DNA from: a virus
Virus record (IMG/VR): IMGVR_UViG_3300010371_000030
Location: 32,001 to 96,000 of that record
Strand: one strand, 5' to 3'
DNA: 64,000 bases
Positions 3,036 to 38,244 of the stretch are shown here, piece after piece. The notes below the pieces were generated by a model. That model searched no databases and was not told the origin of the DNA. It saw nothing but the letters and a program-made list of their open reading frames with translations. How positions within the stretch are numbered: the stretch's first letter is position 1; the number at the start of each line of letters is the position of its first letter. The position numbers and the translations under genes were made by a program.

Positions 3036-4526
3036 CTAATTCCTGACTTCGACAAGAAACGCTGGCTCAGACTGGTACGCTTCCAACCGAGCTTGGGAGT
3101 GCTCCTCCAAGTAATGGTTGGTTTCGTCCATAAAGTCGATGAACAAGGCTACACGCTTGCCCTCGGCCATCGTCAGGTTACGCTGTCGCTGGATGGCTCT
3201 CTTGATATCCCTGCCACCTTCCGCGTTGATGACACACTCGACGGCCGGGATGTCCACGCCCTCGCCCAGGACTGTGCCAATAAGCACGTTGAACTCACCA
3301 GACAGCATACGCTCGATGAGCGCGCGGCGTTTATCCTTCCGCTCCCGCCCCGTGATCTTCTCGTTGGGCACACCCACGGAGTCGAGCCATCGACGAAGCG
3401 TGTTAATGTGCTCCAACTCACGCGCGAGGATGAGCACCTTCATGCCCATATCCACACTCGCCTTCCGGGCGAGCCGAGCGATCATGCTATTGCGCTTGTC
3501 GTTGTTCGTAAGACACATCGAGCGCATCATATCGCTCCACCCCGCAGTCTTGAAGCCGGTCGGTGTGGTAATGCGATACATCTTGACGTTCTGGCGCATC
3601 AGGTAGCCAGCTTCAATCAAGTCCGACATGGACAAGTCGGTTCTGACGGGCCCAAACACACCCTTGAGCCAGATGATGCCGCGCTCCGCTTCCTTCACAT
3701 CGTCCAGGAAGACGGTGGCAGAGAGCGCGACCTTGAACATGGCATCGAAGTCGTATGGAATCTTGTACCACTCGCCCTCGCCCCGGATGTGGTGCGCTTC
3801 GTCGCAGATGAACACGTCCCGCGTGTGAATCAGTTCCTTGTAACGTGGATCCATCGGGCGTCCATTCTTCTTGCCTGGGTCCGAACGTTTGCCGCGCCAA
3901 CGCGCGAGCGATTGAAGCATCGCCACGATGAAGAAGCCATCCTTGTACTCGGAGTCCCCAATGTATCCAATGTCGAGTCCGGGCAAGGACTCCCGCAGGG
4001 AGGCAACCGTCTGCTCCAACAGCATCTGGCTCGGCACGCCGAACACCCCGGGGCGCCCGATTCGACGGATGACTTCAGCCGCTGTCTTGGTCTTGCCCGA
4101 GCGGATGGGCATCTTGAGAATGCCCAGTCCTGGCATCTGGCAATTGAAGATGGAGTCGACCGCCGCCAGCTGGTAGGGACGCAACTGGATGTCTGGATTC
4201 CACGCGATGTCCACGCGTTCGTGGTGGGCATATCGCTCATTCACGACCTTGTAGGGCAGCTTCATCCGCTTGAGCTCTCTGGCGATGTCGATGGCCAGGC
4301 CTGCGGGCGCGAAGTACCCTTCTGGCTCTGCGTACTGAAGCAGATGCTCCTTGCCGTCCCATCGTTTGGCCCGGAAGGCGGGTGAGAAGTGCGAGCCCGC
4401 GATCTTGTAGCTGGTCAATCTTCCAATGGCTCGTGTCACCTTGAGCGAGGCGCCCGAGATGACCACGTGACGATTGGTGACCCGAAGGGTGATCATGGCG
4501 CCGTACGATACCTGGCGCCGTGTCAA
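3036..4526 (-). CDS. Superfamily 2 DNA helicase (UvsW/XPB-like)
   Basis: Q-motif LRPYQ, motif I MPIRSGKT, DEAHH, LSAT, LGEGVDIP, IQRQR. Start may be at 4496. Confidence 0.9.
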   Translation of the reverse strand: MTRRQVSYGAMITLRVTNRHVVISGASLKVTRAIGRLTSYKIAGSHFSPAFRAKRWDGKEHLLQYAEPEGYFAPAGLAIDIARELKRMKLPYKVVNERYAHHERVDIAWNPDIQLRPYQLAAVDSIFNCQMPGLGILKMPIRSGKTKTAAEVIRRIGRPGVFGVPSQMLLEQTVASLRESLPGLDIGYIGDSEYKDGFFIVAMLQSLARWRGKRSDPGKKNGRPMDPRYKELIHTRDVFICDEAHHIRGEGEWYKIPYDFDAMFKVALSATVFLDDVKEAERGIIWLKGVFGPVRTDLSMSDLIEAGYLMRQNVKMYRITTPTGFKTAGWSDMMRSMCLTNNDKRNSMIARLARKASVDMGMKVLILARELEHINTLRRWLDSVGVPNEKITGRERKDKRRALIERMLSGEFNVLIGTVLGEGVDIPAVECVINAEGGRDIKRAIQRQRNLTMAEGKRVALFIDFMDETNHYLEEHSQARLEAYQSEPAFLVEVRN

Positions 4527-28607: not shown

Positions 28608-29078
28608 TCAGAGCACTCCGGACCAGAGCGCCTTGTTCACCGGCGCCCAACCATCGGCGCCCTGCCCCGGGATGGGCTCCGCGTGCTCCACGGGGCCGCC
28701 TTTGCCCTTGTACGTCTTGACGACCGTCTTGGGCTTGTAAGTGGTGACGCGCTGAACTTCGGACAGGTTGCTGAAGGTGAACACGCCCGTTTCGGCGTCG
28801 CGTTCGTACGTAGCGGCGCTGTACATGTACTTGCCGCGCTTGTCCTCGCTCTTGCTGTAGATGTTGACGCTGAGGACGACCACCGAGGAATACACGTCCA
28901 CCACGTACGCGTAATCCTGCTTGGGGTCCATCTTCAGCTGATCCATCACCCACTTGCGCGCGGCGTCGCTCATCGCCTGGGTGAAGTCCTGAACGGACTC
29001 CCCTGTCACGAGCGGGATGTTGGCCTTGTGGACCACCGTCTCGTGCGTTACCTGCTTCTGTTCACCTTGGTCGCTCAT
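28608..29078 (-). CDS. Hypothetical head-module protein ending PVNKALWSGVL
   Basis: Clean 156-aa ORF; C-terminus nearly identical to that of the scaffold. Confidence 0.75.
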   Translation of the reverse strand: MSDQGEQKQVTHETVVHKANIPLVTGESVQDFTQAMSDAARKWVMDQLKMDPKQDYAYVVDVYSSVVVLSVNIYSKSEDKRGKYMYSAATYERDAETGVFTFSNLSEVQRVTTYKPKTVVKTYKGKGGPVEHAEPIPGQGADGWAPVNKALWSGVL

Positions 29079-30685: not shown

Positions 30686-31891
30686 CTACAGGTTGAGACC
30701 GATGTTGTGCCCGTAGGCCACGGCGTCGACTTCCTCCAGCTGGACGTCGACCTTGGTGGTGATGGCGTACTGGTTCACGCCCTTGAAGATGTCGCGATCC
30801 TTCTCGATGCGGACGTCGCGACCGATGCCGATGATCATGTTGTCCTTGTGGGTCAGCATGATCGTCGGGTTGGACTGGTAGGTGACCTTGACGGTCGCCC
30901 CGCTGCTGATGCCGCCGCCGACGCGCGTGATGCCGCCGCCGCTGTAGTCCACCGTGTAGTCGGTGTTCTCCACGTACGGCGTGACGGGCGTGTTCCCGAG
31001 CGTCACGGGGGTGACGACCACGTTGGTCACGGGCCCGTGGAGGAGCGACGTCTTGGTGGTGCCGGTGAGGACGATGTGCTCCACGACGATGGGCTGGAGC
31101 GCCCAGAGCGGGACGGGCACCGCCTTGATCCCGAACGGGCCCTGGAGCTGATCGGGCGTCTGGGTGGCCGCGTCGTCACCGAGCTTGCCGATGCGCGTGG
31201 CCATCTTCTCCTGGAACATCTGCCACAGGTCCGGGCTGAGGAACCAGCGCAGGTCCTGGAGGCGCCGACGGAACTTGATCGGCAGAGCGCGCATGATCTT
31301 GCCGAACACGCTCAGACCGATGTTCTGCCCCTGGAGGTCCACGACGTGGCCGGTCATGCCCAGCTTCTGCCAACCGTCGACCAGCGCCACGAAGGTGTCC
31401 TTGATGTAGCGCGTGCTGTCGCCGCCGTCGATGAGGTCGGACTCCAGGCGAGCGGGACCGAGCTTGTTGCCGGTGATGTACTGCTCCTCCAGGTCGTTGC
31501 CCGTCTGGGTCGCCATGAGGCGCACGATGGTGTCTTCGACATCGCGCCCCTCGATGTTGATCTCCGCGAAGATGTCGCTGATCTCGAAAGGCGTCATGAC
31601 CTCGTGCGGCTGGAGGGTCACCTTGGAGGTGGTGACGCCGCGACGGCGGCGCGGATCGGTCGCCTCCGACTTGGCCATGGCCGCGCGCTTCCCGACGCCG
31701 ATCTTGTCGATCTCCAACGTCTCGTTGGTGAAGCGCACCACGCGAGCGTTGTTGCGAAGGATGGTGATGTCGATGACGTAATCGATGAACTTGTTCGACT
31801 GCGCCGGGTTGAGCTTGCCTGCCGTGGCCAGCGCGTCGGTGGTGACCACCGCCTTGTTGACCAACTCTTCGTTCGTGACGCCCGTGCTCAT
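30686..31891 (-). CDS. Major capsid protein (HK97 fold, PBSX XkdG/P2-like)
   Basis: GKLNPAQSNKFID, EIDKIGVG, EINIEG, NDLEEQYITG, NMIIGIGRDVRIEKDRDI, EEVDAV. Confidence 0.92.
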   Translation of the reverse strand: MSTGVTNEELVNKAVVTTDALATAGKLNPAQSNKFIDYVIDITILRNNARVVRFTNETLEIDKIGVGKRAAMAKSEATDPRRRRGVTTSKVTLQPHEVMTPFEISDIFAEINIEGRDVEDTIVRLMATQTGNDLEEQYITGNKLGPARLESDLIDGGDSTRYIKDTFVALVDGWQKLGMTGHVVDLQGQNIGLSVFGKIMRALPIKFRRRLQDLRWFLSPDLWQMFQEKMATRIGKLGDDAATQTPDQLQGPFGIKAVPVPLWALQPIVVEHIVLTGTTKTSLLHGPVTNVVVTPVTLGNTPVTPYVENTDYTVDYSGGGITRVGGGISSGATVKVTYQSNPTIMLTHKDNMIIGIGRDVRIEKDRDIFKGVNQYAITTKVDVQLEEVDAVAYGHNIGLNL

Positions 31892-31946: not shown

Positions 31947-32906
31947 TTACAGGACGCCGTTCCAGAGGGACTTCTTCACCGGCGTGGCGCCGCCCTCGCC
32001 TCCGCCCTCGGAGTTGCCGGCGGGGCGCGCCTTCTTGACGTCGGCCACCTCGCCTTCGATCTTGGCGAAGCGCGGCTCCAGCCCCTTGGCGACCGCCGCG
32101 GCGATGTCCTCGACGGTGAGGCTCTTGGACACCTCCATGCCGCCCGGAGCCGGCTTGATCTCGCTGGGGGTCGACACCGAGGTGGCATTGGGCAAGTTCT
32201 TGCCCGGACCGCCCGCGATGGGGTGGTCGCTGTCCGGGGCGACGTCGCCCACCAGCTCGTCCAGGAGCCCCTTGAGCGCCTTGAGCTTGCCCACGCGCTC
32301 GGGCGTCATGTGCTTGGCCTTGACGATGAGCGCAGCGAGACCATCCATGGTGAGCGGCGCGTCGCCCTCGTCGCCCTTCTTGGTCTTGGCCTCTTTGGTG
32401 TCCTTGTTCTTGGCGCCGTCCACGTCGGTCGCCGCGCCGCCCGGCCCGGAGCCCGCGTTGGGCTTCTTGTTCGGCTTGGGCGCGGTCTCCTCGTCCGTCT
32501 CGTTGGGCGACACGAGCTTCATCGTGAGGTCCACGCCGGACTTCTTGGCCTTCTCCTCCATGTCCTTCATCTGCTCGTCGGACATGCCCGCGGCCTTGAG
32601 GAACGCCTTGAGCGTCGTGCCCTTGGACTTGTCGACGTTGACCGTGTCCGGAGGCGAGACGCCGGCCAGCGCCGCGACGTTGGCGACGATGGCGGTGACC
32701 TCCTTGAGGATGTCGACCGTTGCATCGCCACCGCCTGCCGCCTTGACCACGACCTTCTCCGTGCCCTGTTCCTGGGTGCCCATCTCTGCCTCCGTCTGGC
32801 CCTTGTCTTTGGTGACGAGCCATTCCTGTTCATTGGCTGGCTCGCCAACCAGGCTCACCTCGCCCACCGCGAGCTTCAAGAATCGCCTGGCTGCTTTCTC
32901 GCTCAT
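31947..32906 (-). CDS. Capsid scaffolding protein with N-terminal protease-like EVSLVGEPAN strand
   Basis: Low-complexity charged/coiled protein directly upstream of the capsid gene; possible internal start at 32783 with GGAGG. Confidence 0.75.
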   Translation of the reverse strand: MSEKAARRFLKLAVGEVSLVGEPANEQEWLVTKDKGQTEAEMGTQEQGTEKVVVKAAGGGDATVDILKEVTAIVANVAALAGVSPPDTVNVDKSKGTTLKAFLKAAGMSDEQMKDMEEKAKKSGVDLTMKLVSPNETDEETAPKPNKKPNAGSGPGGAATDVDGAKNKDTKEAKTKKGDEGDAPLTMDGLAALIVKAKHMTPERVGKLKALKGLLDELVGDVAPDSDHPIAGGPGKNLPNATSVSTPSEIKPAPGGMEVSKSLTVEDIAAAVAKGLEPRFAKIEGEVADVKKARPAGNSEGGGEGGATPVKKSLWNGVL

Positions 32907-33733
32907 AGAAGTTGCGTCCCGTTGGTGCCCGCGTTGGATGCATCGGCGGGCAGCTTCTTGACCGTCGCCTTACCACCGATGCTGAAGCCCTTGATCTTGC
33001 CAGCCTTGACCAGTTTCCACACCGCGGCGTCGAGCACCTTGACCGTCATGATCCAGGAGCCAGCCTTGATCTGTGTCGTTCCGATGGTCAGGTCCAGAGG
33101 TGCGATCCAACTCTCCACGAGCGCGAATCGCCCCTGCCAATTCTTGAAGTCCTTGTGCTGGAAGCCGAGTTTGGTGACGACGTTGTAGCCCGCCACGAAG
33201 GCATGGGCCGCCTCCTGGATGACATCCGCGTCATAGATGTCAGCTTGGGCGTCGGTTTTCTCCGGGGCGAGGACCAGCCCCGTGACCAGCTGTTTTTCGT
33301 CGTTGGACTTGATGATACTGACGTCCAGAACGACATCCACGCTCTTAGTTGTGGCAGCCTCGCTCTCCCGGATGGCGTTCTCCTGGTCGATGGCGCCTTG
33401 TTTGGAGTCGTGCTTGCCGAGCACGCGCGAACCGTCTTGGGTGTACAGCACCCACTTGTCGCCTTCGTGCTTGATGTGCTTGGTCACCGCGTCGGCGCCG
33501 TCGTCGGCCGGCTCGCCCCATGGCTCGTCGCACTTACACGTCCCCGCATCGGACTTGGCACAGTCGCACTTCTTGGTCGGCGGGTTGACCCCGGAGGCGC
33601 CCATGCCCTGCTTGGGCAGCAGCTTGCCAGCCTCGGCCAGCGAATCCGACGTGGCTCCACCGCCCTTCGTGATATCCACGATGCGTAGGAGTCCGCCGAC
33701 GATGTTCTGGTACAGGGTTTCCGCCGTCTCCAC
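32903..33733 (-). CDS. XkdF-like prohead serine protease
   Basis: EKQLVTGLVLAPEKTDAQAD, IQEAAHAF, GFQH, VESWIAP, GSWIM, WKLVKAGKIKGFSIGG. Confidence 0.9.
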   Translation of the reverse strand: METAETLYQNIVGGLLRIVDITKGGGATSDSLAEAGKLLPKQGMGASGVNPPTKKCDCAKSDAGTCKCDEPWGEPADDGADAVTKHIKHEGDKWVLYTQDGSRVLGKHDSKQGAIDQENAIRESEAATTKSVDVVLDVSIIKSNDEKQLVTGLVLAPEKTDAQADIYDADVIQEAAHAFVAGYNVVTKLGFQHKDFKNWQGRFALVESWIAPLDLTIGTTQIKAGSWIMTVKVLDAAVWKLVKAGKIKGFSIGGKATVKKLPADASNAGTNGTQLL

Positions 33734-33767: not shown

Positions 33768-34847
33768 CTAGTCGTCGGCCAGATCTGCGTACGTCGTATC
33801 AGAGGCGATGTCCACGGTCGACCGGCAGCGGAAGTGGTACGGTGGAAGTGCCAACCCTTTGTCCGCCAACGCCTTGGACCCGCCCTTGGCCCGGATGGCG
33901 CTCATCTTCGCGCTTGATACCCACGGATGGGCGGCGCGTACTTCGTCGGGCGTCTTGGCCGCTCGGAGCGCCGCCATCTGATTCACACCATCCTGGACGG
34001 CGAACGTCGTGCCATTCATGTCCTCACAGAATGGCGTCGTGCGACTGTCCATTGGGTTGACAATCTCATACGTCGTCACCTTGATACGTGCGAACGATTC
34101 CAGCTGCCCCTGAACACGAGCGTTCGTAACAGAGTTGGCCGCCAACCCCTCAAAGTAATCCTCGTCTGTACCGCGCCAGCCACCGGGAGCGAAGACACCC
34201 TTGAGCTTCTGCTCCACGATGTCTTGAACCAGCTTACCGGCCGCCTGCCTTCCAAGTCCTTCCAGGAGGGCTTCGCCCACGCCTTCCTTGATGGCCGCGG
34301 CGACGTTCTCACCGTAATGCTCGCCAATCCAGAGCATCTCCTGATTCTGTAGAGCCTCGATGGCGCGCTTGTCTTGGAGATCAAACGACATCTCCAGATT
34401 GGCGTCCGGCAACGGCTTCTTGGCCGCTTTAGCCACCTTGGTCTCGGGCAGAACGTACTGGAGGGAGGCGGACGTCTTGCCCGTGGCCTTCTTGAATCCG
34501 GCGATGCGGGCAAGTCTGTACGTCTTGGCGAGCGACTGTACGTACACCTCCTGTACGTCGCGCGGCCACTTGTCCATCACGGCGTTCACCCGTGACGATG
34601 CTTGCGCCCGGGAGCCTCCGCCGATGATGACAGACTTCGCGGCCAGCGCGGCTTCCTTGGAACGGATTCGCCACTTGGCGAGCAGATACTCACGAAGGCG
34701 TTGTTCACCACGAGCGATTCGGGCCACCTCCGAGATGGCCAGCGCCTTGGCGACCAGCTCGTCTGATCGCTCCACATAGGCGTGTACGATGTCGATGTGC
34801 TTGGAACCGCACTCGCACACCAAACGTTCGCGCACATCCATGGTCAT
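33768..34847 (-). CDS. Minor head protein (Mu gpF / SPP1 gp7-like)
   Basis: DSRTTPFCEDMNG and PPYHFRCRS. Confidence 0.88.
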   Translation of the reverse strand: MTMDVRERLVCECGSKHIDIVHAYVERSDELVAKALAISEVARIARGEQRLREYLLAKWRIRSKEAALAAKSVIIGGGSRAQASSRVNAVMDKWPRDVQEVYVQSLAKTYRLARIAGFKKATGKTSASLQYVLPETKVAKAAKKPLPDANLEMSFDLQDKRAIEALQNQEMLWIGEHYGENVAAAIKEGVGEALLEGLGRQAAGKLVQDIVEQKLKGVFAPGGWRGTDEDYFEGLAANSVTNARVQGQLESFARIKVTTYEIVNPMDSRTTPFCEDMNGTTFAVQDGVNQMAALRAAKTPDEVRAAHPWVSSAKMSAIRAKGGSKALADKGLALPPYHFRCRSTVDIASDTTYADLADD

Positions 34848-36763
34848 GCCGCCTTGGCTTGCCTACGAAACAGATCTTCCACCACGCCCTGGAGCGTCAG
34901 AAGCTTCTTGGCAACAGACACGTTGTCTTCGTCGTCGCCGATGACCAACGACAGATCGTCGCCCAGAATCCCCAGCGCCTTCAGCGCGGTGACTTGTTGC
35001 CCAGGCTCTGAAGGATCAGCTTCGTTCTTGACCGCCTGTGCCATAGTGAGACTGAACGGAACATCGGCCGGGAAGGCATCCGGGAACGGCGGAAGGTCCT
35101 GCCCCAGAATCTCTTCCAGCGCCTGACGGGCGATACGGGGCGTCATGCCGCCGGTCTTCTCGGCGCCAGCCACGATCTTCACGAGCGCCATGTTGTCGGT
35201 CGTGTTGGGCGTGTTCGACTTGAACTGATGGAAGACCACGCCCATCTCCGGGAAGATGTCCCGGTTCATCATGTCGTCGATGAGCGCGCGCTCCGGCGAG
35301 AACACCTGCTCATCGCCCAGCGAGCGCGACGCCTGGATGGTCGCATAGCTGTAGTCCTGGCTCACGCCGATGAACGCCGGAGGGAGCCGGAACGCCCGGC
35401 GAACGCGCTCCGCGTTCTTTTCACGGTACGTGGTGAATAGCTCATCCGTGCGTTGCGTCTTGACCAGTTCTTTGGCGTCGATCTTCACCTGCCCACCGTC
35501 CACGCCGGTGTCCGTCTCGAATGGCTCGCCCTCCATGATGATGAACTTGGAGTAATTGTCGCTGCCCTGGATGTTCGAGTCGGTGAACGACATCAGGCGA
35601 TCGATGGTGCCCTGTGTCAGCACGCCGTTGGACACCATGATGAGCATCGACGGGATGTTGTTGTTCCTGAACGTGACGTAATTGATCTCCTCGGCCGCCC
35701 GGTCGCCAAAGATGGAGAGCAGGTTGCCGATGTATCGAGGGAGACCATACGGTGTACGGGCGCTGTACAACTTCAGATGGATGATCTCGGTGGCGGGCTT
35801 GCGCCCCGCCGGCAGCGGAGGGTACTTGTCGCCCTTCGGGTCCATGGTTCCATCGGGCCATTTGGCAAACTCGCCCGTCTCACGGTCCATGTTCCTCGGA
35901 TCCAGGTGCTCCTTGAACCACCTGATCCGGTATCCCATCGTCGTGAAGCGCAGGTTAGACGCGGGCCAGACGGCGCGCGTCTGCACGAACGGCCGAAAGC
36001 GCCGCCACTCCTTGCGCTTCTTTGCCACCACGCTGCCATCGAGCTGCAGCTCCAACACAGGACGGTCCACCAGCATCTCATCGAGGTCCAGAATGCCCAT
36101 CCTCATCTGATACGACGGGATGTGTACGAATCCGACGATGTTGCCATCAACGTCCCGCAGAACTTCGATGTAGGCGTTGCCCGTCGCTTCCAAGTCGCGC
36201 CGGACGCGGCGGCGAAACGCGGTGAATGACTCCCGCGTGGCGTACGTGAAGAAGTTGGTGAGCATGACGCGCTCGGCATCCGCCTGCTTGCCCAGGTCGC
36301 CCGCGCCTTCCGCGTTGCCTTTCGCGTCCATCTTCAGACGCGACACGTAGCGATGCCCCGTCGCTTCGCAGTTGACCTCCATCGCCTCGATACACTGTCC
36401 CAGCTCGGAGTTGTGCTCCACGAGCATAGTCAGCGTCAGCATGTCAAACGGAGGCTCGATGATCTTGCCGTTGAGAGCCAGTCCGCTCCAAGGATCTTCG
36501 GGCAGCACGTTGGACGGCTCCGGGGTGGCCGCCTTGGTGACGCTCGTCTCCTCCACCATCGAGCGCTCGGCATCGGAGCCCGCCCCGCCCGGCTTACGCT
36601 TGACGACATCGATGATCCGAACGCGCACTTGGCGCACCGCGTCCTGATTGGTCGCGTTGGCCCGAAGAGTTGGACCGCTCGTTTGACCCGGCACCTCCAG
36701 GTCAATCGTTTTGTCCTTGATGACCGTAGTCTCGCTGGCGCCCTTGCTCTTGTCGTCGCTCAT
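34844..36763 (-). CDS. Portal protein (PBSX family)
   Basis: IEPPFD, DLEATGNAYIEVLR, EIIHLK...YGLPRY, FRNNNIP, RAFRLPP. Confidence 0.93.
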   Translation of the reverse strand: MSDDKSKGASETTVIKDKTIDLEVPGQTSGPTLRANATNQDAVRQVRVRIIDVVKRKPGGAGSDAERSMVEETSVTKAATPEPSNVLPEDPWSGLALNGKIIEPPFDMLTLTMLVEHNSELGQCIEAMEVNCEATGHRYVSRLKMDAKGNAEGAGDLGKQADAERVMLTNFFTYATRESFTAFRRRVRRDLEATGNAYIEVLRDVDGNIVGFVHIPSYQMRMGILDLDEMLVDRPVLELQLDGSVVAKKRKEWRRFRPFVQTRAVWPASNLRFTTMGYRIRWFKEHLDPRNMDRETGEFAKWPDGTMDPKGDKYPPLPAGRKPATEIIHLKLYSARTPYGLPRYIGNLLSIFGDRAAEEINYVTFRNNNIPSMLIMVSNGVLTQGTIDRLMSFTDSNIQGSDNYSKFIIMEGEPFETDTGVDGGQVKIDAKELVKTQRTDELFTTYREKNAERVRRAFRLPPAFIGVSQDYSYATIQASRSLGDEQVFSPERALIDDMMNRDIFPEMGVVFHQFKSNTPNTTDNMALVKIVAGAEKTGGMTPRIARQALEEILGQDLPPFPDAFPADVPFSLTMAQAVKNEADPSEPGQQVTALKALGILGDDLSLVIGDDEDNVSVAKKLLTLQGVVEDLFRRQAKAA

Positions 36764-38244
36764 CAGATCAACCCCGGCTCTTTGTCCCTTGTTCGACGTC
36801 GCTTGCCGAGCTTACTAGCCAGCACGGCCAAGTCAAAAGCGTCGAACAGATCATCGTGTTGATGATTTGGGAAGAGCACGAGGTGTTCGATCAGGAGCAA
36901 CTGTGACTCCCTGAAAAACATCTTCTTTTCCTCGAACAGCGAGGACAGCTTCCAAGCCCGAGTCACCTTGTCCTTGTCGGTGATAACCGGGCGAAGCCTG
37001 ATGTCTGGGTCGGTGTCCTTGAGCGTTTGGTATTGGGCCGCTTGATACGCGTTGGTCTCAATCGCGATACGGATTGGGTCCCAACGCTTCGCATACTCCT
37101 TGATCTTGGCCGTTTGGGCGCCGAACCTCAGTTGGTCCTCGTAATGGTCCAAGACATAGAACGCAGTGCGGTCCTTGTTGACGCCAATCACCACGATGGC
37201 GAACTTGTCGTTGGTTTCATCTTCTCCAATCGCCAAGTCGACGCCCATGAACACCTGAAGTCCCTGGGCGTCAGGCCATTCCGTGTCGGGAACGCGCTGG
37301 CAATCGTCGTACTGGAAGATTTCACCCTTCATGGCGTCAGTATCATTCTGATACTGGGCGTTGAAGATGATCAGGCCGCTCTTCTCTCGCTTCGCCGTGA
37401 ACCACTTGGGCGGATACTTCTCGGGCCACGGCGACCGACCGAGTTCATCCAGCGCCTTGATGATATGCACGTGGTTCTTGAGCTCGTGAGAGATCAAGTG
37501 CCCATAGTAGTCCAGGTGGTGATAACGCGTCCCAAGCCGATGACGCTCACCGCGGTGCGGCACCTTCGGGTCAGGCGGCTCCAGCGTCGGGTCCAGCGTG
37601 GTATACGCCCAAGACACCAGCTTGTCGCGCTGGTGCTGCGTACGGCTGTTCTCCTCATCGACAATGTCATCCTCGATGATGACATCGTAATGCTTGGACA
37701 CGATGGTTCCGTCAGCCCCGACGCACGTGATGGAAGCCTCCTTGTTAGGGCTCCGCCGGGGCAGGACCTCAATCTCACGATTGTCCCACTTGGTGACCTT
37801 GCGAGCATCGTAGTACTGGCCGAACACCTCGGCCAGACGTTCGTTCTGCTCAAAGTGTTTCTTGATACCACGCAAGAATCCCTCCGCGTTCTGCGCCGTC
37901 TTGGAGGCGATCAGGATACGCAGGTTTGGATCCTTGAGAAGTAGATGAATACACTTCGTTTCCGTACAGAGCGTGGACTTGCCCGCTCCTCGGAAGATCA
38001 GCTGTAGGTTGTCGGGGTGGGCGAACTGCCACTTGAGCATGGCCACGTGGAACGGCATCACCGTCAGGCCAAGCACCGCCGCCGCCAGGATATCAATGCG
38101 ATTGTTCTGGATGACTTGCCGTCGAATCCACTCGTTGTTCATCGAGCGGCAACGGCGGTAATACTCCACCAGTTCGCCGTGGTCGGCTACTGCCAGCGCG
38201 CTGGCAGATAGCATGCCCGGCGAGGCGGCCTTGGCCGGGACCAT
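36763..38244 (-). CDS. terL: Terminase large subunit
   Basis: RGAGKST Walker A, IIEDDIVD Walker B, GTRYH, FNAQYQN, MGVDLA, IETNAYQ, HDDLFDA. Confidence 0.95.
   Translation of the reverse strand: MVPAKAASPGMLSASALAVADHGELVEYYRRCRSMNNEWIRRQVIQNNRIDILAAAVLGLTVMPFHVAMLKWQFAHPDNLQLIFRGAGKSTLCTETKCIHLLLKDPNLRILIASKTAQNAEGFLRGIKKHFEQNERLAEVFGQYYDARKVTKWDNREIEVLPRRSPNKEASITCVGADGTIVSKHYDVIIEDDIVDEENSRTQHQRDKLVSWAYTTLDPTLEPPDPKVPHRGERHRLGTRYHHLDYYGHLISHELKNHVHIIKALDELGRSPWPEKYPPKWFTAKREKSGLIIFNAQYQNDTDAMKGEIFQYDDCQRVPDTEWPDAQGLQVFMGVDLAIGEDETNDKFAIVVIGVNKDRTAFYVLDHYEDQLRFGAQTAKIKEYAKRWDPIRIAIETNAYQAAQYQTLKDTDPDIRLRPVITDKDKVTRAWKLSSLFEEKKMFFRESQLLLIEHLVLFPNHQHDDLFDAFDLAVLASKLGKRRRTRDKEPGLI

Follow-up and report, generated by a model that had tools for sequence, protein, structure and literature searches.

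A phage prohead protease apparently divided between two genes, with one strand encoded at the start of the scaffold gene

We describe a prohead protease that appears to be encoded in two pieces by adjacent genes in a stretch of viral DNA of 64,000 nucleotides (the window; positions 32,001 to 96,000 of IMG/VR record IMGVR_UViG_3300010371_000030). The first open reading frame (ORF), ORF1, encodes a catalytic core of the XkdF type, and the second, ORF2, encodes a scaffold protein that opens with a short conserved segment, which we call the strand module. According to the comparisons below, the protease fold is divided between these two genes, and the division is conserved in a large clade of phages. 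The explanation that we favour, and consider probable, is that ORF1 and the first ~33 residues of ORF2 constitute one prohead serine protease, in which a minor, long form of the scaffold donates a strand that completes and tethers the enzyme. The strand on the scaffold probably serves to hook the enzyme onto the scaffold. An initial annotation of this DNA had proposed a heterodimer completed by the scaffold N-terminus, and the computations support that proposal by homology, by a strand in the model of a relative, and by a match to T4 gp21 that reaches residue 173 instead of 153. Coordinates of all features are collected in Table 1.

The strand module at the start of ORF2

In HK97 gp4, a single chain, the Ser motif GMSVGF is followed after 24 residues by REISVCTFPANEQ (gene fetched and translated). 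The rule stated in the initial annotation, that E[VI]S.V..PA[NY] comes after G.S.G in the same chain, is therefore true of HK97 gp4. In the window, ORF1 ends with ...GTNGTQLL-TGA, 25 residues past its own Ser motif GFSIGG, and its stop codon overlaps the ATG of ORF2 in the ATGA at 32903-32906. The N-terminus of ORF2 is MSEKAARRFLKLAVGEVSLVGEPANEQEWLVTKD, with EVSLVGEPAN at 32832-32861; the opening follows the pattern RRF..L.V.EVSLV..PAN....LV.K, and the module proper is RRFLKLAVGEVSLVGEPANEQEWLVTK. The positions that the initial annotation gave for GFSIGG and EVSLVGEPAN are correct, and so is the ATGA overlap that it described. When aligned, the two pieces of the window are collinear with HK97 gp4 through H65, S114, the ISV..PAN block and K159. 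The counterpart of the module is the last beta-strand region of HK97 gp4 (~131-159) and of T4 gp21 (~154-173).

A 175-node profile of single-chain proteases, built only from HK97 gp4, the Streptomyces phage BillNye protein and the proteins of three Bacillales prophages (L088, L089 and L090), recovers both pieces. Residues 143-263 of ORF1 fall on nodes 5-124 and residues 2-30 of ORF2 on nodes 136-166; the two matches are complementary and collinear. The Pfam profile PF04586 (the HK97 gp4-type S78 family) is covered by the two pieces jointly. ORF1 has no PF04586 match at E-values up to 10, and the whole domain is not found in one polypeptide. In the read-through of a relative, L002, the profile covers the Ser motif and the strand (residues 107-167, positions 95-148 of 165), with 16 bits, below the cut-off of 21. 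In the naturally single chain of BillNye it spans the Ser motif and the module above the cut-off (residues 105-166, positions 93-153 of 165, 27.6 bits).

Less directed searches return little for ORF2. Pfam has no match in ORF2, either whole or in its first 45 residues, and tblastn with the whole of ORF2 finds no match in the phage collection. With the 37-residue ORF2 N-terminus as query against 2.3 Gb of phage DNA, tblastn gives just two weak matches (E-value 3); both are records of the archaeal virus HCTV-2, and both fall on the equivalent motif inside the annotated prohead protease gene. By sequence, the N-terminus of the scaffold and the last strand of HK97-type proteases are homologues.

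The catalytic core in ORF1

ORF1 matches PF14550 (Peptidase_S78_2) with 105.2 bits against a cut-off of 24, over profile positions 5-123 of 126. Two residues, His193 (within KLGFQHKDF) and Ser251, are invariant in 26 homologues, and in hhalign they align with H65 and S114 of HK97 gp4 and with H85 and S140 of T4 gp21, of which the H85A/S140A form is catalytically dead (PMC12991175). These hhalign comparisons were of the family alignment against the single HK97 gp4 or T4 gp21 sequence, and the aligned region ended at the Ser motif; the strand region was reached by MAFFT and by the purpose-built profile. Searched against PDB sequences, the family profile gave no match at E-values up to 10.

The initial annotation had described ORF1 as an XkdF-like protease that holds the His and Ser motifs and then stops short. 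The family and both motifs stand; the incompleteness depends on the reference. Against PF14550 it does not hold, since ORF1 alone covers 5-123 of the 126 positions, and against the HK97 (PF04586) and T4 gp21 fold it does. The PF14550 model itself stops at the Ser motif.

Upstream of the core, ORF1 of the window carries a ~60-residue insertion, KHIKHEGDKWVLYTQDGSRVLGKHDSKQGAIDQENAI (residues ~70-129, 33347-33526), that is absent from homologues and matches the PHROGs families phrog_3684 and phrog_1578 (function unknown). It also carries a CxC-7-CxC cysteine cluster, KKCDCAKSDAGTCKC, at residues 56-68 (33530-33568), where most close homologues have EKCACGKS...KC. This cluster may form a small metal-binding knuckle.

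Conservation of the split in relatives

The 91 related loci that we retrieved, out of collections of viral and genomic sequences, hold 64 distinct protease cores with enough flanking DNA to check for the module. The module accompanies all 64, lying within 520 nucleotides (nt) downstream for 61 and at the protein's own N-terminus for the other 3, an association that by these counts is far beyond chance. The 54 distinct downstream modules have the consensus [RQ]RF.[DE]L.V.EVS[LV]VD.PANE.EF.V.K, in which V and A are found in 54/54 and E, S and K in 53/54.

The end of the core is conserved as well. The 74 ORF1 homologues that a database search gives all contain PF14550, and most measure 160-245 aa. 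In each of the 25 that were aligned, the C-terminus lies 8-28 residues past the Ser motif GFSIGG; the two closest end in ...GGQKL, compared with ...GTQLL in the window. The junction between the two genes varies. From the protease stop to the ORF2 start the distance ranges from -14 to +108 nt across relatives, the three relative frames occur 20, 19 and 14 times, and in some relatives the two genes are in frame with one or two stop codons between them. The same split is found in more than 50 distinct loci and in a cultured Vibrio phage with a complete sequence. The variable spacing and the use of all three frames exclude a conserved recoding signal as well as a pseudogene or a frameshift introduced in assembly.

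An assembly or sequencing frameshift error, or a pseudogene, is accordingly the least credible account of the junction. The sole hint of an error is the first impression of a known domain cut short, whereas independent assemblies share both the position of the stop and the C-terminal tail; the artefact that the initial annotation had named as its own possible refutation is rejected by these comparative data, the cultured Vibrio phage among them. A programmed -1 frameshift or a read-through that joins ORF1 and ORF2 into a single-chain protease-scaffold is also highly improbable. It would fit with the ORF2 frame being open for 25 codons upstream of its ATG, and with the relatives whose genes are in frame across one or two stops. 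However, the final 80 nt of ORF1 show no slippery heptamer of the form X XXY YYZ, the relatives use all three frames and have gaps of up to 108 nt with further stops, and the ORF2 homologues have start codons of their own. We rejected the programmed frameshift on the missing heptamer and the variable frames and gaps.

In some loci (L032, L048, L053, L060, L064, L073 and L079) a protein of ~930-1130 aa has the XkdF core as its C-terminal domain. Even there, the next gene is a scaffold gene with the strand module at its start.

Four arrangements of core, strand and scaffold tail

The core, the strand module and the scaffold tail are found in four arrangements. In the first, core-strand-scaffold, one chain holds the three parts in that order, as in Streptomyces phage BillNye (annotated 'capsid maturation protease', 449 aa) and in the three Bacillales prophages L088-L090. 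HK97 gp4 also has its module after the Ser motif in the same chain. The second arrangement, strand-core-scaffold, is again a single chain, and includes the large Bacillales XkdF family and the archaeal virus HCTV-2; the Bacillales proteins start with MPREL.NA.ITHVS[YL]VDKGAN.K.F...KS, in which many residues are invariant. The third has two genes, a core gene followed by a strand-scaffold gene, and is that of the window, of uncultured phage contigs of ~100 kb and of the cultured Vibrio phage vB_VhaS_R21Y. In the fourth, core, strand and scaffold are three separate ORFs. We have this case in one contig only, L051 (IMGVR_UViG_3300017991_000604, ~3390-3510), where a 35-aa ORF that ends in ...VVIKS-stop and shares the frame of the scaffold encodes the module; past the stop codon, the scaffold gene begins anew at the usual internal Met. 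The L051 case is either a natural arrangement in its own right, the fourth, or a nonsense change confined to this single contig. The free-standing module of L051, which ends one residue past the Lys equivalent to K33 of ORF2, argues that the strand can work without being attached to the scaffold.

The tails link the arrangements. Bacillales XkdF proteins (of the PBSX type) and BillNye share with the window the PF14550 core, the strand module and a scaffold-like S.W.GL tail; they differ in that the Bacillales and HCTV-2 proteins (strand-core-scaffold) and BillNye and L088-L090 (core-strand-scaffold) are single chains, whereas the window has its core on one gene and strand plus scaffold on another. 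Specifically, the Bacillales single-chain tails often end in S[VLI]W[DS]GL[LVF], like the ...KKSLWNGVL of ORF2. As the scaffold tails are alike, the parts are homologous in all arrangements.

These relocations bear on the possibility that the module is a leftover from the fission, between core and strand, of an ancestral protease-scaffold fusion, kept on the scaffold for some other reason or for no reason, next to an XkdF core that is self-sufficient. PF14550 is complete in ORF1, as a self-sufficient core would have it, and a survey of jumbo phages regards XkdF as unrelated to the T4-type (S77) prohead peptidase and mentions no strand module (PMC7824862). We nevertheless consider a leftover quite improbable, and reject a functionless one, because the columns of the 54 distinct modules are near-invariant despite freely diverged flanks, module and core co-occur in 64/64 cases, and the module is retained both when it has moved to the N-terminus and when it is free-standing.

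In vB_VhaS_R21Y, the gene that follows the XkdF protease (L094, OR147960.1, 3248-4408) is annotated as a 'K+-dependent Na+/Ca+ exchanger'. It has the strand module ASYISVVDRGANRLPIRMLK at its start, then NEGENM, and only weak Pfam matches of the coiled-coil type. To judge by its opening and its place, this 'exchanger' is a misannotated scaffold.

Structure models

As a proxy for the fold we used L002, a relative with a core 63% identical, whose two genes share a frame and are separated by a single TGA. The TGA was read as Gly, and core, linker and module were folded as one chain with AlphaFold, using an alignment that contained 10 further read-throughs, 3 natural core-strand-scaffold proteins and 21 core-only homologues. 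The model has a mean predicted local distance difference test score (pLDDT) of 81.8. In it, GFSIGGKARVQK forms a strand at residues 119-130, the linker is less confident (block-mean pLDDT 66 for residues 131-140), and the module, RRFLGLNVDEVSVV, forms a strand at residues 148-161 (block-mean pLDDT 81 for 141-150 and 93 for 151-160). The best structural match of this model is T4 gp21 (5JBL chain B), with a Z-score of 11.0 and a root-mean-square deviation of 2.8 Å over 130 residues, model residues 10-167 being aligned to gp21 15-173. Herpesvirus proteases come next, with Z-scores of ~5-8. The assemblin fold is thus recovered, for this single-chain proxy.

We also modelled a permuted protein of the strand-core-scaffold arrangement (L081, residues 1-180), with a mean pLDDT of 76.8. 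Its N-terminal module forms a strand at residues 3-17 (block-mean pLDDT 85 for 1-10 and 72 for 11-20). T4 gp21 was not among the top 1000 Foldseek chains for this model, but an exhaustive comparison did list it, with a Z-score of 9.0 over 115 residues and model residues 31-160 aligned to 3-153 of the chain. The ~15 extra aligned residues and the match to gp21 154-173 appear only with the module placed after the Ser strand in the chain, and on the strength of the models we therefore equate the module with the strand that follows the Ser strand in gp21. The models further indicate that XkdF proteases have the fold of T4 gp21 and of the herpesvirus proteases, contrary to the jumbo-phage survey (PMC7824862).

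Third catalytic residue

In gp21-like enzymes the catalytic triad consists of a His, a Ser and an acid ~25 residues after the Ser (PMC5694885). Because the module is collinear with the region after the Ser, the acid would be expected on the strand encoded by ORF2, with E16 as the main candidate. This column is also E in HK97.

E16 would acquire particular weight in a stricter form of the proposal, an obligate two-component protease of the assemblin type. In that form the core would be inactive or unfolded alone, the long scaffold would supply both the strand and E16, and proteolysis would take place only where the two proteins meet. We find this form possible but rather doubtful.

Internal start and scaffold isoforms

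Fifteen codons past the PAN motif, ORF2 has the sequence acGGAGGcagagATG, in which a ribosome-binding site, GGAGG, precedes an in-frame ATG (Met42). The arrangement is conserved. An equivalent ATG is found in 52 loci, and a Shine-Dalgarno core of 5 nt lies 3-11 nt upstream of it in 40 of them, with a core of 4 nt in 5 more. For comparison, the background rate in these loci, taken over 2165 other internal in-frame ATGs, is 4.3%. The internal core is spelled nnG-GAG-Gnn, where the first codon encodes Leu, Gln, Thr or Ser and always ends in G; that this codon varies and yet always ends in G indicates selection on the nucleotides. An in-frame internal start for a scaffold-only product, as in nested protease and scaffold genes, is therefore present at the level of the DNA.

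The start of the long form is less regular: of the 53 loci where it can be assigned, 19 use TTG or GTG. In the window, the long form is coupled to the protease gene by the ATGA and has no obvious Shine-Dalgarno sequence. Given the conserved GGAGG and ATG, most of the scaffold would lack the strand module, and we infer two products of ORF2: initiation at Met42 would give the short scaffold, in abundance, and the ATGA-coupled start the long form, in smaller amounts.

Predicted cleavage sites and a capsid-like protease N-terminus

The end of the module resembles the N-terminus of the major capsid protein. Capsid N-termini of the clade read ..SNEELV.KA[VI]I.. (K13 in the window), and the ANEQEWLVTK that ends the module (clade form ..ANE.EF.V.K..) resembles the capsid NEELVNK. 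The Lys of the module, K33, aligns with K159 of HK97 gp4. The likeness suggests a shared cleavage site after Lys in the capsid protein and in the scaffold module.

The protease has a capsid-like stretch of its own. ORF1 residues 20-43 (DITKGGGATSDSLAEAGKLLPKQG) are identical to capsid residues 9-32 (31796-31867) at 10/24 positions (BLASTP E-value 3e-5), and the pattern L.xK...ITxDxLxxGGKLxPxQ is kept both in protease homologues and in capsid N-termini. The protease N-terminus also has a ..L[VA].K.. site ahead of this stretch. In the window, ..ITKGGGATSDSLAEAGKLLPKQG of the protease mimics ..LVNKAVVTTDALATAGKLNPAQS of the capsid N-arm. Such an N-terminus could be a second route into the shell, or a shared propeptide.

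The same likeness is what speaks for an alternative in which the main role of the module is that of a substrate, a recognition element or an inhibitor; it would bind the cleft and be cut after K33, serving only as the site cleaved first or as a block for a limited time. ANEQEWLVTK resembles both the capsid SNEELVxK and the site at the protease N-terminus, its Lys is kept in 53/54 modules, and T4 gp21 has been described as blocked by its own N-terminal residues until it cleaves itself (PMC9958956). However, the stretch RRF..L.V.EVSLV lines up collinearly with a segment integral to the HK97 S78 domain and falls inside the Pfam S78 profile, the model with the module in sequence matches gp21 to residue 173 where the permuted form, with its strand out of order, matches to 153, and the capsid N-terminus lacks the EVSLVD part of the module. 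We judge this alternative unlikely as the main role. It is not exclusive of a structural one; the strand and the adjacent cut site both belong to the explanation that we favour.

Proposed mechanism and points against it

The explanation that we favour, one enzyme made of ORF1 and the start of ORF2, would work as follows. ORF1 would be a barrel core of the XkdF/S78_2 family and assemblin fold, with His193 and Ser251 as catalytic residues. The N-terminal strand of the long scaffold would insert into this core, as NS4A does into NS3 of hepatitis C virus, completing the fold and perhaps adding the third active-site residue (E16 or a neighbour). The strand contact would be a non-covalent tie between protease and scaffold, so that the protease would be built into the prohead. 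After assembly, cuts would be made after Lys at sites of the LV.K type, in the scaffold at K33, in the capsid protein at K13 and possibly in the protease at K23. Once cut loose at K33, the enzyme would keep the strand peptide and go on to digest the scaffold. The initial annotation had supposed that proteolysis could be switched on only inside the prohead and off by a cut at LVTK/D. The second half of this is unlikely; because the strand would stay bound, the K33 cut more plausibly releases the enzyme than inactivates it.

Several observations weigh against this mechanism. The model in which the strand docks is that of a relative's read-through, a single chain and not the two chains of the window, and docking is favoured in it by the covalent linker and by the single-chain relatives in the alignment. 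PF14550 is satisfied by ORF1 alone, and the core may therefore fold and act by itself. If the capsid-arm-like N-terminus of the protease is a second handle for encapsidation, the tether may not be needed. The E16 column is E in 53/54 of the modules encoded in trans but H, F or Y in single-chain forms. Finally, the module of the window departs from the consensus at G21, where 50/54 have D, and at W29, where 49/54 have F.

Comparison with known systems

HK97 gp4 and PF04586 have the same order of elements as the window, namely His, G.S.G, a linker of ~25 residues and R.F...L.E[VI]S.V..PANE......K. In HK97 all of these are on one chain, capsid targeting is by the C-terminal tail of the protease and there is no separate scaffold, whereas in the window the chain stops past the Ser strand and what follows is on the scaffold gene. 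T4 gp21 (PDB 5JBL) and the herpesvirus assemblins have the same fold and the equivalent His and Ser, and differ in being single chains with an identity of at most 13%.

In lambda C/Nu3, Mu I/Z and herpesvirus UL26/UL26.5, a long protease-linked product is made together with an abundant short scaffold from an internal in-frame start, and the scaffold part carries the enzyme into the procapsid. The fold of lambda C is a different one, ClpP/S49-like. The window shares the internal in-frame start (GGAGG and ATG) with these nested genes. The difference is that their long product holds the whole protease covalently, while the long form of ORF2 holds only a module of ~27 residues. Donation of a beta-strand by a separate polypeptide, which completes the barrel and anchors the enzyme, is known from hepatitis C virus NS3/NS4A and flavivirus NS2B/NS3. 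The likeness of these two to what is proposed for ORF1 and ORF2 is mechanistic only; the chymotrypsin-like fold, the RNA viruses and the membrane anchoring differ.

How a protease enters the procapsid and stays quiescent until assembly is done is a central question for tailed phages and herpesviruses alike. The known answers are covalent, the protease being fused to the scaffold or having a targeting tail of its own. The locus and its many relatives suggest a third answer, in which enzyme and scaffold share one beta-strand. If so, a detachable strand found at the N-terminus, at the C-terminus, on a neighbouring gene and as a mini-ORF would be a natural series of circular permutation and fragment complementation, spanning a capsid protease common to bacterial and archaeal viruses. 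The four arrangements of one strand would also be a ready-made system for the study of protein fragment complementation. For annotation, the Pfam XkdF model leaves out a conserved structural element, and scaffold genes of the clade are misannotated, as in R21Y. In the literature that we searched, we found no account of the strand module, of its permutation or of its transfer to the scaffold gene; among the papers searchable, XkdF, S78_2/PF14550 and the HK97 protease-scaffold had annotation-level mentions only.

Gene order and features

The setting of ORF1 is a head-morphogenesis module, in the order terminase, portal, MuF-like protein, ORF1, ORF2 and capsid (Table 1). ORF2 lies between the protease and major capsid genes, and related loci have a homologue of ~300 aa in the same place. 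The capsid proteins to which the product of the capsid gene is ~33% identical are those of Vibrio, Streptomyces and PBSX-like phages.

Table 1. Features of the protease-scaffold locus, with positions in the window.
Feature	Positions	Strand	Remarks
Large terminase	36763-38244	minus	PF17289
Portal	34844-36763	minus	PF04860
MuF-like head protein	33768-34847	minus	PF04233, 28.3 bits, just below the cut-off of 29.6
ORF1, prohead protease catalytic core protein	32903-33733	minus	276 aa, GTG start
Protease N-terminal segment	33605-33676	minus	ORF1 residues 20-43; resembles capsid N-arm
XkdF/S78_2 domain	32963-33316	minus	ORF1 residues 140-257, Pfam match
His193 codon	33155-33157	minus	ORF1, within KLGFQHKDF
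Ser251 codon	32981-32983	minus	ORF1, within GFSIGG (32972-32989)
ORF2, scaffold long isoform	31947-32906	minus	319 aa
Strand module	32808-32888	minus	ORF2 residues 7-33
E16 of ORF2	32859-32861	minus	Strand module
K33 of ORF2	32808-32810	minus	Strand module
Internal ribosome-binding site GGAGG	32789-32793	minus	5 nt before ATG
Internal in-frame ATG	32781-32783	minus	Met42 of ORF2; sequence read directly
Predicted short scaffold isoform	31947-32783	minus	278 aa, without the strand module
Scaffold C-terminal tag PVKKSLWNGVL	31950-31982	minus	End of ORF2
Major capsid protein	30686-31891	minus	~33% identity to annotated major capsid proteins
Capsid N-terminal NEELVNK	31853-31873	minus	Capsid residues 7-13; candidate shared cleavage site after Lys

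The tail of ORF2 has a near-copy elsewhere in the window. A 156-aa protein without a Pfam match, encoded at 28608-29078 on the minus strand, ends in ..PVNKALWSGVL, which is nearly the same as the end of ORF2. The shared ..LW.GVL tail is a candidate tag for targeting a cargo protein to the capsid interior.

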